From positions 105,329 through 169,328 of the forward strand of contig NZ_JAPNJX010000021.1 in assembly GCF_026626685.1 (NCBI RefSeq): a stretch of DNA of 64,000 nt, read 5' to 3'. Shown here piece after piece: positions 22,580 through 29,148 of the stretch. The position numbers were made by a program, and so were the translations under genes. The notes under the pieces were generated by a model. That model worked only from the letters and a program-made list of their open reading frames with translations, did not search any database and was not told the DNA's origin. Within the stretch, counting starts at the first letter, position 1. The number at the start of each line of letters is the position of its first letter. This stretch comes from Nannocystis sp. SCPEA4 (GTDB lineage Bacteria > Myxococcota_A > Polyangia > Nannocystales > Nannocystaceae).

Positions 22580-22822
22580 CGCGAATTGCCGACTGCGCCT
22601 CGCGTGGGGTCCGGGGAAGGGTCGGCCGCGAGTTCAGCGTGCCGATGCCCCCTCCTGCGTCGGGGTCATCTTGCCCTCGTATTCGCGGCCGACCCTTCCC
22701 CGGACCCCTGGCACGGCTGCAGCCGTGAGAGGCCGACACGCCGTCCTCGACTCCGATGGAGGATGTCCTTTGGAGCAGCTTGCCAGCGCCTGGTCGACGG
22801 CCAGGGCTGGCCGCCGACCAGA
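22580..22822. repeat. Copy A of a roughly 235-bp dispersed element carrying an internal 21-bp inverted repeat
   Basis: About 85-90% identical to the reverse complement of 28912..29148. Internal stem GGGGTCCGGGGAAGGGTCGGC ... GCCGACCCTTCCCCGGACCCC separated by about 60 nt. Confidence 0.75.
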
Positions 22823-23056
22823 CGCTTTCTCAGGTCATTACGGCGTGTCATCTCCCACGGCGTGCGCTTGCCGTGCGCCGCACAGCGCCTTCCCAAGACG
22901 TGGTGAGAGACAGGCGTCGATCTTGCTGACGAGGGCCGGCGCATGCGGTGACATGACTTAGAGACATGTCTTTTTAAACAGTCCATGACCATTCACGGGT
23001 TCGCGCTGGCGCGCAGGCGTGTGCTCGCGCATGCTCGCGTCCGGAGACCCGGACCC

Positions 23057-23479
23057 ATGCCACACAGTTATCACGGCAGCTGTCACTGCGGCACGATCCG
23101 CTTCGAGGCCGACATCGATCTGGCCGCCGGCATTCGCAAGTGCAACTGCAGCTTCTGCTGGAAGCTCGGCTATCGCAAGGCGCTCGTCCCGTACGACGCC
23201 GTGCGCACGACCGCAGGCGCCGAGGCGATGAAGGACTACCAGCCGACCCCCCTGCACTGGCCCCCCGGCGACATCAACCACTACTTCTGCGGCTCGTGCG
23301 GCGCGCACGTGTTCTCGCGCGGCTACCTCGAGAAGGAGATGGGCGGCCACTTCTGGGCCGTCAACGTCGCCTGCCTCGACGACGTCACCGAAGAGGAGCT
23401 CGCGGCGGCCCCGGTCATCTACGAGGACGGCAAGCGCGACCGCCAGGACCAGCCGCCCGCCATCACCGCCTACTTGTGA
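23057..23479 (+). CDS. GFA-family protein (glutathione-dependent formaldehyde-activating enzyme/CENP-V-like)
   Basis: MPHSYHGSCHCGTIRFE ... CNCSFC ... FCGSCGAH Cys pattern. 140 aa. Confidence 0.75.
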   Translation: MPHSYHGSCHCGTIRFEADIDLAAGIRKCNCSFCWKLGYRKALVPYDAVRTTAGAEAMKDYQPTPLHWPPGDINHYFCGSCGAHVFSRGYLEKEMGGHFWAVNVACLDDVTEEELAAAPVIYEDGKRDRQDQPPAITAYL

Positions 23480-23577
23480 GCCGCAGACGGTCGTCGAGCG
23501 ACCTGCCCGATCAAACATGTCACTCCCACTGGCGCGGCCGAAGTATCATCGCGCCAGCGAGACCAGCGACCGCTCGC

Positions 23578-25311
23578 TCAACCCGACCGCGCCCACGCCA
23601 CGAACGCCTCGAGCGCCGCCAGCGGAGCCTCGTCCGCGATCACGCGGGCCAGCGCCGCCAGCAGCTCCGGCTCCGCGTGGCCATCCAGGCGGGCCCGGGC
23701 CACGTTCGCGGCCAGCTCCCAGCCGGGAGAGCGCACCCCCCCGGCCAGCATCTCGCGCAGCTGCGCCAGCGCATCGGGCACGACCTCGGGCGCGTGCGCG
23801 TGCGCGTAGAAGCACAGCTCGCAGCGCAGCGGCGACCCGGCCTCCGACAGCTCGAGCGCCCGCGCCAGCAGCTCGCGCCCCTCCGCGCCGCGTCCCTCCG
23901 CGAACAGCAACCGGGCGAAGTTGCCGAGCAGGTTGGCGTCCTCCGGATCGGCCGCCAGCGCGCGGCGGTACAGCGCCTCGGCGCCGGCGACGTCGGCGAA
24001 CGCCGCCGCGCGGAAGTTGGCGTAGTTGCCGAGATGGTGCGCGTCGTCCGGCGCGGCCGCGATCGTCGCCTGGTAGCAGGCGTCGGCGCGCGCCCGATCG
24101 CCGCGGATCAGCGCCAGGAAGTTGGCGAAGTTGCCGAGGTGATCGGCGTCGTCCGGTGCGGCCGCCAGCGCCTGCTCGTAGTACGCCTCGGCGAGGTCGT
24201 GCTCGCCGCACACGTCGCTCAGGAACGCCGCGAAGTTGCCGAGCATGTCTGCATGGTCCGGCGCGTCGGCCAGGAACTTCTCATAATAACCGCGAGCCAG
24301 CGGGTTGCCGGCCGAATGTAGCGCCGTGGCGAAGCTCGCCAGCCGCGGCGAGTCGACCGGCAGCGCCTCCGCGAGCAACGCGAACAACGGGTCGCTCGCG
24401 GCGGCCGGCGCCATGTGTTCGCGCAACCGCGGGAACAACCCCCCCAGCGACGCCCCTGTCGGCTCGACCACGATCGCCACCCGCAGCAGCGCCAGCGCGC
24501 GCCCCCACGCCTGCGCCTCGATCGCCGCCTCGACGCCGCGGAGGAGCGCCCGCGCCTCGAACCCCGCGTCGACCAGCAGCTCGCGCGCCAGCGCCACGTG
24601 GGCCGCGTGCACCGGCCCGCGCTCGCTCGCCTGTTCGTGAAGCGCCAGCCGCGGGTGCTGCGGGATCGGCCCCGACAGCGCGAGTACCTCGTCCGCGAAC
24701 GCCACGCGCGCCGCCTCCTCGCGCACCGCCGTCAGCTCGTCCTCGCCGAGCGGCAGCGGGCCGTACACCACCCGCGCCGGCAACTCCGCCACACGACAGC
24801 GGCGCAGCAGCTCGGCCGTGCCCGCCACCTGCTGTTGATTGAGCGCCGTCAACACCACCACGCGATCGGCGAGCGCCCGCACCACCCGCTCCGTCGCCCG
24901 CGACAGCCCCGCCGGGCCGTCGACCAGCACCACGTCGGCGATCTCGGCGGCGTCGAGGCGGCGCCGCAGTTCGCCCAGCACCGCCGCGCGCTCGCCCTGC
25001 GGCCACGCGTCCAGACGATCCCAGTACGCCGCATCGAGCCGGCCCGCCCGCAGCACCCGCAGCGTCCCCGCGATCGGCACGCAGCACCCTGCCATCGCCG
25101 CGGCTTCCGGCACCCCCGCCGTCATCAGCTCCACGAGCCCGTCGCCGTCGCCGCCGGCCAGCCGCGACAGCCCCGGCGACTCGAGATCGGCGTCGACGAG
25201 CAACACCCGCAGCCCACGCGCCGCCAGCACGCGCCCGACGCCCAGCACCGCCAGCGTCCTGCCCACGCCGCCGTGAGCCGACCAGAACGTGATGAACGGC
25301 GCCGCCTGCAT
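23578..25311 (-). CDS. ParA/MinD-like P-loop ATPase domain (deviant Walker A lacking both lysines) fused to TPR repeats
   Basis: N-terminus FITFWSAHGGVGRT...VLLVDADL resembles KGGVGKT...D-D of ParA/MinD with K replaced by H and R. C-terminal half is TPR-like (AEAYYEQALAAAPDDADHLGNFANFL repeats). Confidence 0.6.
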   Translation of the reverse strand: MQAAPFITFWSAHGGVGRTLAVLGVGRVLAARGLRVLLVDADLESPGLSRLAGGDGDGLVELMTAGVPEAAAMAGCCVPIAGTLRVLRAGRLDAAYWDRLDAWPQGERAAVLGELRRRLDAAEIADVVLVDGPAGLSRATERVVRALADRVVVLTALNQQQVAGTAELLRRCRVAELPARVVYGPLPLGEDELTAVREEAARVAFADEVLALSGPIPQHPRLALHEQASERGPVHAAHVALARELLVDAGFEARALLRGVEAAIEAQAWGRALALLRVAIVVEPTGASLGGLFPRLREHMAPAAASDPLFALLAEALPVDSPRLASFATALHSAGNPLARGYYEKFLADAPDHADMLGNFAAFLSDVCGEHDLAEAYYEQALAAAPDDADHLGNFANFLALIRGDRARADACYQATIAAAPDDAHHLGNYANFRAAAFADVAGAEALYRRALAADPEDANLLGNFARLLFAEGRGAEGRELLARALELSEAGSPLRCELCFYAHAHAPEVVPDALAQLREMLAGGVRSPGWELAANVARARLDGHAEPELLAALARVIADEAPLAALEAFVAWARSG

Positions 25312-28063: not shown

Positions 28064-28135
28064 CGCACGGCGGGTCCGCCCGCGGACCGGCTGTTTTTCT
28101 GGTCACCGCCGGGCCGCGTCTGCTATGGTCCGCCC

Positions 28136-28741
28136 ATGTCTTCTCTTATCGATTGCCCTGAGTGCGCCTGTCTATTCCGAGCGTCCGACGCCAGCTGCCC
28201 GTTCTGCGGTCACACTCAGCGTCACACGTTCAGCCCCTCGTGGACGGCAATCGCCCTGAGCGCGAGCCTCGGTGTGATGGGTGCCGCCTGCCAGCTCGAC
28301 AAGGATCCCGGCGACACGGCGACCACCGATCCGAGCGAGTCCGGCACCGAGGCCGCGGCCGACTCCGAGACCGCCGGCGACACCTCGACCGCCGGCGACA
28401 CCTCGACCTCCAACGGCCCCCTCACCACCACCTCTGGCGGCGAGAACACCGTCGGCGACACGACCATCGATCCGCCGAACCCCTCGGGCGACGGCTCCAC
28501 CTACGCCGGCCCCGACGAAGGGTGGACCACCGAGGACAGCAGCACCACCACCACGACCGGCGGCCCCTCGACCACCACGACCACGACGAACTGGAGCACC
28601 ACGGACGCCTCGACCTACGCCGGCCCCGACGAGGGCTGGACGACCAGCGGCACCGGCGACCCCGAGAGCACCAGCACCAGCACCAGCACCAGCACCGGCA
28701 CCACCGGTGAGACCACCAGCACCGGCACCACCGGCGGCTGA
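28136..28741 (+). CDS. Zinc-ribbon / TM / Thr-Ser-Gly-rich low-complexity protein
   Basis: MSSLIDCPECACLF...CPFCGH zinc ribbon, one TM helix, then a tail with STYAGPDEGWTT x2 and poly-Thr runs. Confidence 0.5.
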   Translation: MSSLIDCPECACLFRASDASCPFCGHTQRHTFSPSWTAIALSASLGVMGAACQLDKDPGDTATTDPSESGTEAAADSETAGDTSTAGDTSTSNGPLTTTSGGENTVGDTTIDPPNPSGDGSTYAGPDEGWTTEDSSTTTTTGGPSTTTTTTNWSTTDASTYAGPDEGWTTSGTGDPESTSTSTSTSTGTTGETTSTGTTGG

Positions 28742-28911
28742 GCTCGCGCCCCTGCTCCACCGCGAACGCCCTCGCGGCCCGCGTGTCTGTCCGGACCTGT
28801 CCTGACGGGCACGTCATATTATTGTCTACAGTGCCCGTCTCGGCAGCTTCCCGCGCGAGCGTCTCCCCGCCCGGGAATGACGCGGCGTGAATGACCCGAG
28901 AAGGCGTCTGT

Positions 28912-29148
28912 TCGGCGGCCAGCCCTGGCCGTCGAACAGGCGCTCATGACCTGTCCCCCAGGACATCCTCCATCGAAGCCGACGACGCCGCGTCGGCCTC
29001 TCACGGCTGCAGCCGTGCCAGGGGTCCGGGGAAGGGTCGGCGACGAATACGAGGCAGGATGGGCGCGAGGAACGAGCGTCCATCCAGACGCTGAACTCGT
29101 CGCCGACCCTTCCCCGGACCCCCCGCGAGGCGCAGACGGCAATTCGCG
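28912..29148. repeat. Copy B (inverted orientation) of the roughly 235-bp dispersed element
   Basis: Reverse complement aligns to 22580..22822. Same internal 21-bp inverted repeat. Sits between the convergent zinc-ribbon and radical-SAM genes. Confidence 0.75.

Follow-up and report, generated by a model that had tools for sequence, protein, structure and literature searches.

Intergenic repeats of the ERIC (IRU) type are non-coding imperfect palindromes in transcribed intergenic regions, numbering from a few to some dozens per genome and differing in presence or absence between related species. To our knowledge they have no terminal inverted repeats, and we know of no transposase for them nor of any established way in which they spread. 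The Nannocystis element described here is likewise non-coding, intergenic, variable in presence or absence and without terminal inverted repeats, but the two have no sequence similarity. ERIC measures ~127 bp and forms one hairpin, whereas the Nannocystis element has a ~285-nt core folding into four helices in two domains, with a variable leader and tail; unlike ERIC, it is confined to Nannocystis, and its copies lie directly after stop codons with a strong bias toward the sense orientation. We regard it as an interesting but fairly ordinary type among bacterial intergenic repeats.

Bacterial MITEs (Correia/NEMIS, RUP, Nezha) resemble the element in being small, non-autonomous and multi-copy with insertion polymorphism, and they are co-transcribed with neighboring genes, as the Nannocystis element may be. 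In contrast to MITEs, the latter lacks terminal inverted repeats and shows no clear target-site duplication (one site has a 3-nt TGA that may be one), and no full-length relative among insertion sequences came to light. BOX elements of Streptococcus pneumoniae are built of modules, with short tandem units in varying number, paralleled here by a 24-nt leader unit, tandemly amplified 9.5 times in copy L012, and by tandemly duplicated tails, but the two are unrelated in sequence, and the Nannocystis core far exceeds BOX elements in size and in strength of structure. Within the genus, the account of N. exedens in PMC6868368 describes several chromosomal repeats resembling the msr-msd of retron Ne160, none of them with a reverse transcriptase less than a kilobase away, and gives their interpretation as possible retrotransposition (Lampson and Rice 1997, Mol Microbiol 23:813, via PMC6868368).

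The window, that is, the whole 64-kb stretch of Nannocystis DNA analyzed, contains two copies of the element and no others. An earlier note had described two inverted copies, and these are real, 22576–22866 on the + strand matching 29152–28873 on the − strand at ~84–85% identity. By blastn, 22576–22856 aligned with 29152–28873 (84.8% over 282 nt), a repeat search returned the inverted pairs 22675–22839/28890–29054 (165 nt, 88%) and 22576–22675/29053–29152 (100 nt, 82%), and pairwise alignment carried the similarity slightly past the limits first given, to ~22866 and ~28873. Each copy has two exact 21-nt inverted arms, as reported, with spacings of 61 and 60 nt; the 21-mer GGGGTCCGGGGAAGGGTCGGC occurs exactly four times, at 22606–22626 (+), 22688–22708 (−), 29021–29041 (+) and 29102–29122 (−), against 0.01 occurrences expected from shuffles. 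The gene context was also correctly read, the left copy lying 3' of a DUF1552/HXXSHH gene that ends at 22523, and the right copy 3' of a radical-SAM gene (29180–30499, − strand), facing the end of a convergent gene. The features of the two copies are as follows.

22521–22523, + strand: TGA stop codon of the DUF1552/HXXSHH gene and left junction of the insertion (sequence; comparison of empty and filled sites with three other species); a second TGA lies at 22904–22906
22524–22575, + strand: 5' leader of the left copy, G-rich and variable, with GCTTCGG-type units (consensus visible in alignments)
22576–22849, + strand: conserved core of the left copy, GCTTCGCGAATTGCC ... ACGGCGTGTC (alignment A2, columns 31–312)
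22605–22709, + strand: long hairpin P1 of the left copy (repeat search, fold, covariation), with the exact arms 22606–22626 and 22688–22708 in its lower stem and 22637–22680 as upper stem and loop
22590–22725, + strand: helix S3 of the left copy, in which 22590–22603 pairs with 22711–22725, closing P1; it contains the invariant palindrome CACGGCTGCAGCCGTG
22735–22849, + strand: domain 2 of the left copy (consensus fold, covariation), in which long-range helix S2 (22735–22743 with 22841–22849) encloses a variable stretch (22744–22785) and then hairpin P4 (22786–22825)
22850–22906, + strand: variable 3' tail of the left copy, ending in the second TGA, immediately after which the pre-insertion sequence GAGACAGGC resumes
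29153–29182, − strand: TGA stop codon of the radical-SAM gene (29180–29182) and 27-nt leader of the right copy, TTGGTTCGGCGCGGGGCCGGGTGTGGT
28879–29152, − strand: conserved core of the right copy (alignments, blastn), sharing 99% identity with L023a, its orthologue in N. radixulma
29020–29123, − strand: hairpin P1 of the right copy, with exact 21-nt arms 29102–29122 and 29021–29041
28879–28994, − strand: domain 2 of the right copy (consensus fold, covariation), in which S2 (28986–28994 with 28879–28887) encloses P4 (28904–28943)
28840–28878, − strand: variable 3' tail of the right copy (alignments)

The window copies differ by compensatory changes in S2, which reads GACACGCCGT/ACGGCGTGTC on the left and GACGCGGCGT/ACGCCGCGTC on the right. 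A consistent hairpin in the 3' tail was tested as a candidate and rejected.

Both copies are members of a Nannocystis-specific, non-coding repeat family that is multi-copy and dispersed beside unrelated genes (hydrolase, PAPS reductase, FadL, methyltransferase, PmbA/TldD, thioesterase, DUF1552 and radical SAM). A scan of 185,579 species genomes with one exact 18-mer from the hairpin arm found 20 Nannocystis loci in three species, and the ~20 further copies, unlinked to the window pair, identify a dispersed repeat rather than a two-copy local duplication. The resulting counts of at least 11 copies in N. radixulma, at least six in N. punicea and at least three in N. bainbridge are lower bounds set by the use of that single 18-mer. 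Matches outside the genus were single chance occurrences without the element, an independent 23-mer matched just two metagenome contigs, both orthologues of known sites, and a search of viral contigs found no element. Overall the element measures ~290–380 bp, comprising a core of ~285–290 nt with a variable G-rich 5' leader and variable 3' tail (~330–380 nt as inserted). The element is non-coding: GC3 is 0.66–0.76 in all six of its frames versus 0.88–0.98 in genes, and 1-nt indels occur between conserved blocks of the copies. Peptides shared by open reading frames at the two sites were rightly called spurious, the GC3 coding signature being absent from every frame. Searches of Rfam at E ≤ 10 matched no retron msr or other described RNA family, returning just sub-threshold hits to hairpin-type models.

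Copies have been gained at new sites. In N. punicea, N. pusilla and N. bainbridge, three sister species with the same gene order, both window sites are empty, and loci L062, L063 and L064 are syntenic without the element. At the left site the empty allele reads ...GGCC TGA GAGACAGG... and the filled allele ...GGCC TGA (380 nt) TGA GAGACAGGC..., which defines a 383-nt insertion between the stop codon and the terminator, the empty alleles having a GC-rich hairpin 20–30 nt past the stop codon. This is the one junction pair resolved, and here the copy sits upstream of the original terminator hairpin. The sole candidate target-site duplication is the 3-nt TGA at this one site, which could be chance. 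The suggestion that the repeat is a non-autonomous mobile element holds as far as dispersal, absence of coding capacity and empty sites in three species are concerned, but it is not a classical MITE: its ends are not complementary (leader–tail duplex, mean z = −0.1), and the 21-bp repeats, first taken for a MITE feature, are internal arms that form a hairpin stem. No reverse transcriptase, HUH/Y1 transposase, DDE transposase or recombinase gene adjoins any copy found. The ends of the element are ill-defined and tend to duplicate locally in tandem; this is atypical of cut-and-paste or HUH elements and counts against a mobile-element account.

Copies are almost always found just 3' of a stop codon and on the sense strand of the host gene. 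The upstream gene is on the strand of the element at 14 of 16 independent full-length sites (one-sided binomial, ~0.002), and in 12 of these 14 a confidently called stop codon lies 20–121 nt before the core; at L056 the nearest open reading frame, 75 nt away with no other nearby, is doubtful (64 aa).

The strong stem-loop proposed for the repeat was borne out, the unit being far more stable than shuffles on both strands (−183.2 kcal/mol, z = −8.8 on the + strand; −196.9 kcal/mol, z = −9.4 on the − strand). An alignment of 18 copies supports a single-strand fold of four helices (86 pairs, 98.6% of cells paired), accompanied by invariant unpaired blocks. The core fold, in which S3 closes P1 and S2 encloses P4, is conserved and preserved by compensatory substitutions, with double changes at 19 pairs compared with 6.1±1.3 in shuffles and 0–4 in slid controls. 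Ten of the covarying pairs are in helices 2–4 of P1, three in helix 5 and five in helix 8 of domain 2, and covariation is neutral on the S3 stem, which is invariant. P4, a GC-rich hairpin, spans 18 positions, of which 16 form standard pairs and two are mismatched on the + strand; (U/C)UUCUC follows it on that strand. Conserved G·U pairs point to the + strand for P1 but to the − strand for S3 and P4; of the two consensus folds, that of the − strand has the greater stability. Of 21 copies, 19 have just 0–2 broken pairs among the 56–86 that could be scored. At the ATP-synthase-c locus, an old orthologous site shared by three lineages, paired columns differ by 1.7–10% and unpaired columns by 23–37% (p ≤ 1e-3 with discovery columns removed); constraint is weak at a second old site, the YceI locus, with seven broken pairs in one lineage. 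Copies cluster partly by lineage and orthologous copies fall in different subfamilies, so gene conversion rather than selection at each site may keep some of them intact.

We think it somewhat probable that these copies constitute a non-autonomous Nannocystis repeat family that is moved in trans and rides in the 3' UTRs of upstream genes. An enzyme encoded elsewhere would move the element, presumably recognizing a folded single strand of DNA or RNA in place of terminal inverted repeats. Once inserted, a copy would be co-transcribed as part of the 3' UTR of the upstream gene, where its stable structure may be tolerated or useful, blocking decay from the 3' end or aiding termination. Such a role would explain why stems are intact in most copies, some of which are older than the species splits.

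It is possible, though unlikely, that the element is instead a host RNA, either a multi-copy cis-acting 3'-UTR module or a small RNA, spread and kept by selection and recombination without dedicated transposition machinery and serving as stabilizer, terminator or protein-binding platform. The four covarying helices with their invariant unpaired blocks, the far greater constraint on stems than on loops between orthologues at one old locus, the structural integrity of nearly every copy, the sense orientation close to stop codons and the P4 hairpin with the (U/C)UUCUC that follows it are all consistent with such an RNA. However, a new insertion placed exactly between stop codon and terminator has no known mechanism in the absence of mobilizing activity, and the conserved wobble pairs do not single out the sense strand. 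No promoter was found by scanning the element, nor did a simple terminator scan find a canonical terminator, contrary to the description of the repeat as terminator-like. The host genes have no function in common, and copies L023b, L043, L002, L065 and L058 are deleted or decaying.

We consider it improbable that the copies are retrotransposed, msDNA-like elements of retron origin, identical or related to those of N. exedens. In that case a Nannocystis retron reverse transcriptase, working in trans, would have produced cDNA from an msr-msd transcript, or msDNA itself, that then integrated into the chromosome. The two sets, compared by description only, share the genus, several dispersed copies, long stem-loop potential and, as far as the PMC6868368 account goes, the absence of a nearby reverse transcriptase. 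Moreover, domain 1 (alignment A2, columns 31–189, ~157 nt) is by our estimate close in size to the 160-nt msDNA, and a promoterless element in sense position 3' of genes would obtain an RNA intermediate by read-through transcription. Against this, neither an Rfam msr match nor a repeat enclosing the whole unit like retron a1/a2 was found, the latter judged by the leader–tail score given above. Taking S2 or S3 as a1/a2 would, reasoning from the fold, leave no room for an msr together with a 160-nt msd, and none of the loci recovered by the scan came from a genome titled N. exedens.

Equally doubtful is a REPIN/RAYT-type or IS200/IS605-derived (PATE-like) origin, in which folded single-stranded DNA would be moved by an HUH (Y1) transposase and inserted, with no target duplication, on the 3' side of a short motif (here ...TGA). 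As in intergenic REP doublets, two invariant ~21-nt inverted arms around a variable spacer form a hairpin of ~100 nt (~105 nt here), and as in PATEs and the HEARO/omega-RNA guide scaffolds the element is highly structured, strand-specific and multi-copy. PATEs also lack terminal inverted repeats and target duplication and insert beside a short motif; the empty and filled left sites fit insertion right after TGA, and the right end of the element is also TGA. In P1 the lower stem is invariant and covariation is confined to the upper one, a pattern suggesting that a protein recognizes the specific sequence. However, the conserved unit, at ~290 nt against ~100 nt for a REP doublet, has a second structured domain besides the hairpin, the arms are not themselves palindromic, and the at least 3–11 copies per genome recovered with one exact 18-mer fall far short of the tens to hundreds usual for REPINs. 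In the three genomes, no Y1 or RAYT gene is flanked by an 18-mer match, no TnpA, TnpB or IscB gene was seen nearby, and the Rfam search matched no described transposon-end or guide-RNA family. The hairpin is also far longer than the end hairpins of IS200/IS605, and the variable length of leader and tail leaves the element without sharp ends.

A simple local duplication, or a pair of recombination sites for inverting the 22.9–28.9 kb segment, is suggested by two ~285-bp inverted copies, 85% identical, flanking 6 kb, but is hardly credible given the ~20 copies at unlinked loci, the closer identity of each window copy to copies elsewhere (left, 90% to L061; right, 88–89% to L012 and L019) than to its partner (84%), and the lack of a recombinase gene in the segment. 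The inversion envisaged in the earlier note was not seen in any of five genomes: gene order and orientation do not differ among the window, N. radixulma, where both copies are present, and the three species without them. Each copy is in sense orientation with its own upstream gene and these genes converge, and the inverted arrangement of the window pair is therefore a by-product of its converging host genes rather than an inversion device.

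Both inverted copies of the repeat described in the earlier note are real. The left copy (winL) and right copy (winR) align over the paired segments 22675-22839/28890-29054 (165 nt, 88%) and 22576-22675/29053-29152 (100 nt, 82%), with 84.8% identity across 282 nt by blastn, and a blastn search followed by a profile search found no further copy in the 64-kb window. Each copy also carries the reported 21-bp inverted repeat: the 21-mer GGGGTCCGGGGAAGGGTCGGC occurs exactly four times, two per copy and inverted, with the arms 61 and 60 nt apart, against an expectation of 0.01 occurrences in shuffles. 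The G+C content of the window is 73%, and RNA folding bore out the stem-loop, both strands folding far better than shuffles (z = -8.8 and -9.4). The flanking genes match their earlier description and are as follows; exact-protein look-up of the GFA gene product returned no record.

Genes flanking the two copies (window coordinates)
end at 22523, + strand, DUF1552/HXXSHH gene
22985-23479, + strand, GFA gene
23578-25368, - strand, ParA-like ATPase with TPR repeats
25619-28063, - strand, HTTM protein
29180-30499, - strand, radical-SAM gene

The element is a multi-copy family confined to the genus Nannocystis. An exact 18-mer from the hairpin arm, scanned against 185,579 species with one genome each, matched 61 stretches, of which 20 were in Nannocystis (11 loci in N. 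radixulma, 6 in N. punicea, and 3 in N. bainbridge). The element is present at all 20 of these dispersed loci; 18 are near-complete, covering most of ~290 nt and matching the left window copy at 76-92% identity, and the other two are partial. Matches outside Nannocystis were single chance matches at which the element was absent, and viral contigs likewise gave one chance match and no element. An independent 23-mer taken elsewhere in the element retrieved only two short contigs from a metagenome collection, both orthologues of known sites. No Rfam family was found in the whole window at gathering thresholds, and the region 22400-23000 gave only sub-threshold hairpin-type matches at E <= 10. The element belongs among the structured bacterial intergenic repeats and has no family in Rfam. 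Because the window is 95-97% identical to L023, an N. radixulma locus that has both copies, its source organism is a close relative of that species.

Syntenic loci in N. punicea, N. pusilla, and N. bainbridge, reached via orthologues of the ParA-like protein, have the same gene order and orientation as the window and lack the element in all three cases. Judged from these alignments, both window copies are gains at new sites, and mobility, as proposed in the earlier note, is probable. At the left site, the empty allele reads ...CTCCTGGCC TGA GAGACAGG... and the filled allele reads ...CTCCTGGCC TGA (22521-22523), 380 nt, TGA (22904-22906) GAGACAGGC..., with a 12-nt match, TGAGAGACAGGC, marking the old post-stop sequence. 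This match puts the insertion at 383 nt, of which 3 nt are ambiguous or duplicated. The TGA on both sides is a candidate target duplication from a single filled/empty pair and may reflect chance or a target motif. The left junction (...TGA, element ...TGA, flank) is compatible with PATE-type insertion 3' of a short fixed motif and no target duplication; the spacing from stop codon to core elsewhere varies from 20 to 121 nt. Empty left-site alleles contain a GC-rich hairpin 20-30 nt past the stop codon, and the element therefore landed between the stop codon and a presumed terminator. At the right site, the intergenic DNA of the other species is not alignable and no junction is definable. All lineages sampled, the metagenome strain included, have the element beside an ATP-synthase-c gene and beside a YceI gene, which, together with the gains in the window, indicates that the family comprises both old and young insertions. 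In N. pusilla, an extra acetyltransferase gene lies between the GFA and DUF1552/HXXSHH genes (12575-13066 of the syntenic locus L063), occupying the stretch between genes into which the element inserted in the window lineage.

The genes upstream of the copies belong to unrelated families, and of 16 independent full-length sites, 14 have an upstream gene that reads in the + orientation of the element (one-sided binomial p ~0.002). At 12 of these 14 sites, the core begins 20-121 nt downstream of a confidently called stop codon; at one locus, L056, the sole nearby open reading frame (ORF) is a doubtful one of 64 aa, 75 nt away. The gene downstream of the element is mostly convergent. The mutual inversion of the two window copies follows from this arrangement, since each lies in the sense orientation behind its own gene, DUF1552 on the + strand and radical SAM on the - strand. 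Such a preference for the sense strand just 3' of stop codons is unusual among structured bacterial intergenic repeats.

The alignment of 18 copies (A2) resolves the element into three parts, and its consensus fold into two domains.

Parts of the element in the 18-copy alignment
conserved core, ~285 nt from GCTTCGCGAATTGCC to ACGGCGTGTC, window 22576-22849 (+) and 29152-28879 (-)
leader, ~20-50 nt before the core, G-rich and variable
tail, after the core, variable

In domain 1, helix S3 closes a long hairpin, P1; in domain 2, a variable stretch and the GC-rich hairpin P4 (~18 bp) lie within the long-range helix S2. The lower 21 bp of P1, invariant across copies, are the inverted repeat of the earlier note. 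Across the 18 copies, 98.6% of cells that pair in the consensus fold are paired. Compensatory double changes were found in 19 of 86 pairs versus 6.1±1.3 in column shuffles, none of 500 of which reached the observed value, and the count fell to 0-4 when partners were slid by 1-3 columns. The covarying pairs are located in upper P1, S2, and P4, and compensatory changes can already be seen between the two window copies, for example GGCCGCGAG/TTCGCGGCC versus GGCGACGAG/TTCGTCGCC. Tests of which strand folds gave a mixed result: the conserved G·U pairs of P1 are on the + strand, S3 and P4 contain + strand A·C mismatches whose - strand counterparts are G·U, and the consensus fold energy is -152.7 kcal/mol for the - strand versus -128.9 kcal/mol for the + strand. 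A fifth hairpin in the 3' tail, P5, was plausible by eye in a few copies and was rejected, the tails folding like shuffles (mean z ~0). The fold of the element is better supported than that of most structured bacterial intergenic repeats.

Most copies have kept this fold, with 0-2 broken pairs among 56-86 scorable pairs in 19 of 21 copies. At the ATP-synthase-c site, compared across three lineages with the discovery columns removed, divergence is 1.7-10% in paired and 23-37% in unpaired columns (p <= 1e-3); in the neighbouring gene, it is ~18% at four-fold degenerate sites. This pattern suggests that the stems have been constrained since insertion. Constraint is weaker at the YceI site, where one lineage has 7 broken pairs. 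Orthologous copies are sometimes of different subfamilies and copies cluster partly by lineage, so that gene conversion between copies may contribute.

Other copies are damaged or rearranged. The N. radixulma orthologue of winL (L023 6437-6451, corresponding to window 22620-22720) has lost ~100 nt, almost the whole long hairpin, in a deletion bounded by short GG microhomologies. An internal deletion in locus L043 (369-435) left the leader, first arm, and tail, and locus L002 (6957-7137) has the 3' half of the element. Tails are tandemly duplicated in several copies, and a 24-nt leader unit is amplified 9.5-fold at L012, the ATP-synthase-c locus of N. punicea, where the element has three tandem arrays in its flanks that are absent from the orthologous N. 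radixulma locus.

Tandem arrays at L012
4931-5165, 24 nt x 9.5, element leader unit
5553-6021, 60 nt x 7.8
6056-6552, 254 nt x 2

A further element-bearing locus, L005, has a 62-nt tandem duplication (3252-3400, - strand) comprising the last 23 nt of the upstream thioesterase gene, its TGA, and the element leader up to GCTTCGCGA, with breakpoints within a CTTCG microhomology.

The earlier description of the element as repetitive and non-coding was right, given its many loci and the absence of a coding frame. A protein-coding reading was rejected on a GC3 of 0.66-0.76 in all six frames versus 0.88-0.98 in neighbouring genes. Because of this non-coding GC3 and because 1-nt indels between conserved blocks shift the frame among copies, the peptides shared by the look-alike ORFs are spurious, as had been suspected. 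The suggestion that the element is terminator-like found no backing, an intrinsic terminator scan detecting no such site inside either copy; P4 is followed only by (U/C)UUCUC. A sigma-70 promoter scan inside the copies found nothing. A sigma-54-like TGGCACG motif was noticed by eye in the invariant block and dropped, since its fit is limited to the GC of the -12 box and the downstream genes are not co-oriented. The proposal that the two copies could mediate inversion of the intervening 6-kb segment also found no support, the segment being uninverted in all five genomes compared (the window, N. radixulma, and the three element-free species). Each window copy is closer to copies elsewhere than to its partner.

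In lifestyle, the element resembles ERIC/IRU, REPINs, MITEs, and BOX elements. A relationship to the IS200/IS605-derived PATE/omega-RNA is disfavored by the lack of element matches to the HEARO and IS605-orfB motifs in Rfam. The MITE/REP-like label of the earlier note fails on defining features of both kinds. Like MITEs, the element is small, non-coding, and multi-copy, with presence/absence polymorphism, but it lacks the terminal inverted repeats that define these derivatives of DDE transposons. The terminal features expected of a MITE did not appear: RNAduplex energies between a 57-nt segment (55 nt of upstream leader plus the first 2 nt of the core) and the 60-nt 3' tail are no better than those of shuffles (mean z = -0.1, 18 copies), and the ends of the 383-nt left insertion show no complementarity. 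An inverted-arm hairpin is shared with REP/REPIN sequences, in which the conserved unit is a doublet, whereas conservation and covariation here extend over ~285 nt including a second domain. No RAYT (Y1) gene was found in the flanks of the 20 Nannocystis 18-mer loci, nor was a reverse transcriptase, transposase, or recombinase found among the ORFs flanking any copy. The ORF downstream of the element-bearing locus L029 was considered as a mobilizing enzyme and rejected, as it reads like a membrane protein.

A derivation from retrons was also considered. According to a review (PMC6868368) that summarizes Lampson & Rice 1997, N. exedens is reported to have several chromosomal repeats resembling the msr-msd of retron Ne160 with no nearby reverse transcriptase, and retrotransposition was suggested for them. 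The present element would then be retron/msDNA-derived and related to these repeats, with which it was compared by description only; the shared want of a nearby reverse transcriptase speaks for this, and we nonetheless consider it unlikely. Retrons have a reverse transcriptase directly downstream, in contrast to the element, whose flanking ORFs contain no RVT domain on either side (Pfam). Moreover, the a1/a2 repeats of retrons enclose both msr and msd, while the element has no leader-tail complementarity and S2 and S3 each enclose one domain only. No retron msr family was matched in Rfam at E <= 10, the 18-mer scan gave no match in any genome titled N. exedens, and the correspondence of domain 1 (~157 nt) to 160 nt is only a coincidence of size.

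Our preferred reading is a non-autonomous element that would be moved in trans by an enzyme recognizing the folded single strand. Once inserted, it would travel in the 3' UTR of the upstream gene as a passenger, presumably by co-transcription and possibly with some benefit to the host. The demonstrated parts of this reading are dispersal in many copies, gain at new sites, the conserved fold, and the sense orientation. A fuller version of trans mobilization, to which we give little credence, would make the element a mobile structured RNA module, a retrotransposed element that is SINE-like in a bacterial setting and msDNA-related. An enzyme working in trans would copy it by way of RNA or single-stranded DNA, and the Nannocystis retron reverse transcriptase would be the most interesting candidate for that enzyme. 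Such a module would be sense-targeted to the junction of stop codon and terminator, and selection would then maintain it as a structure with a function in the 3' UTR.

Myxobacteria have very large genomes in which small mobile and repetitive DNA has been poorly catalogued. With its well-supported fold, clear gains, and post-stop sense preference, the element offers a workable system for studying spread without terminal repeats and effects on the 3' ends of host mRNAs. Should it turn out to be the msDNA-like repeat that was described for N. exedens in 1997, the retrotransposition proposal could be tested directly on the available genomes. For annotation, the repeat yields spurious look-alike ORFs in very GC-rich genomes, and local instability arises from it as well, through hairpin deletions and tandem amplification at its edges.

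The intervening cluster (23578-28805) encodes a ParA-like ATPase that has the KGGVGR motif and is fused to TPR repeats, a large membrane protein with an HTTM domain, and a small protein rich in repeats, and its gene order is kept in all five genomes examined, with the element present or absent. Upstream of the right copy, an ORF contains ACC/GGC-rich direct repeats with a short period of 18 nt (28348-28430 and 28526-28738), which encode a low-complexity stretch rich in Thr, Ser, Gly, and Asp. Directly upstream of the radical-SAM gene is the gene for a bacterial protein homologous to the major vault protein of eukaryotes, with MVP shoulder, Vault_3, and Band_7/SPFH domains, an arrangement common to four Nannocystis species.

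Vault-protein homologue in the window and in syntenic loci with empty sites
30695-33244, - strand, window
2213-4711, L062
2682-4724, L063 (N. pusilla)
2221-4716, L064

The 10-nt palindrome GGACATGTCC, with one mismatch allowed, has 20 sites in the window versus 2.0±1.5 expected (for example 859-868, 27191-27200, 40810-40819, and 63504-63513). It also occurs in the flanks of five element-bearing loci (L014, L016, L043, L047, and L050) and in the empty sites of L062-L064. In L016 and L043, the space between stop codon and element holds short tandem arrays of related GGGCATG/GGACATG units. This looks like a separate short intergenic Nannocystis motif, which would be a small repeat or a site for protein binding.
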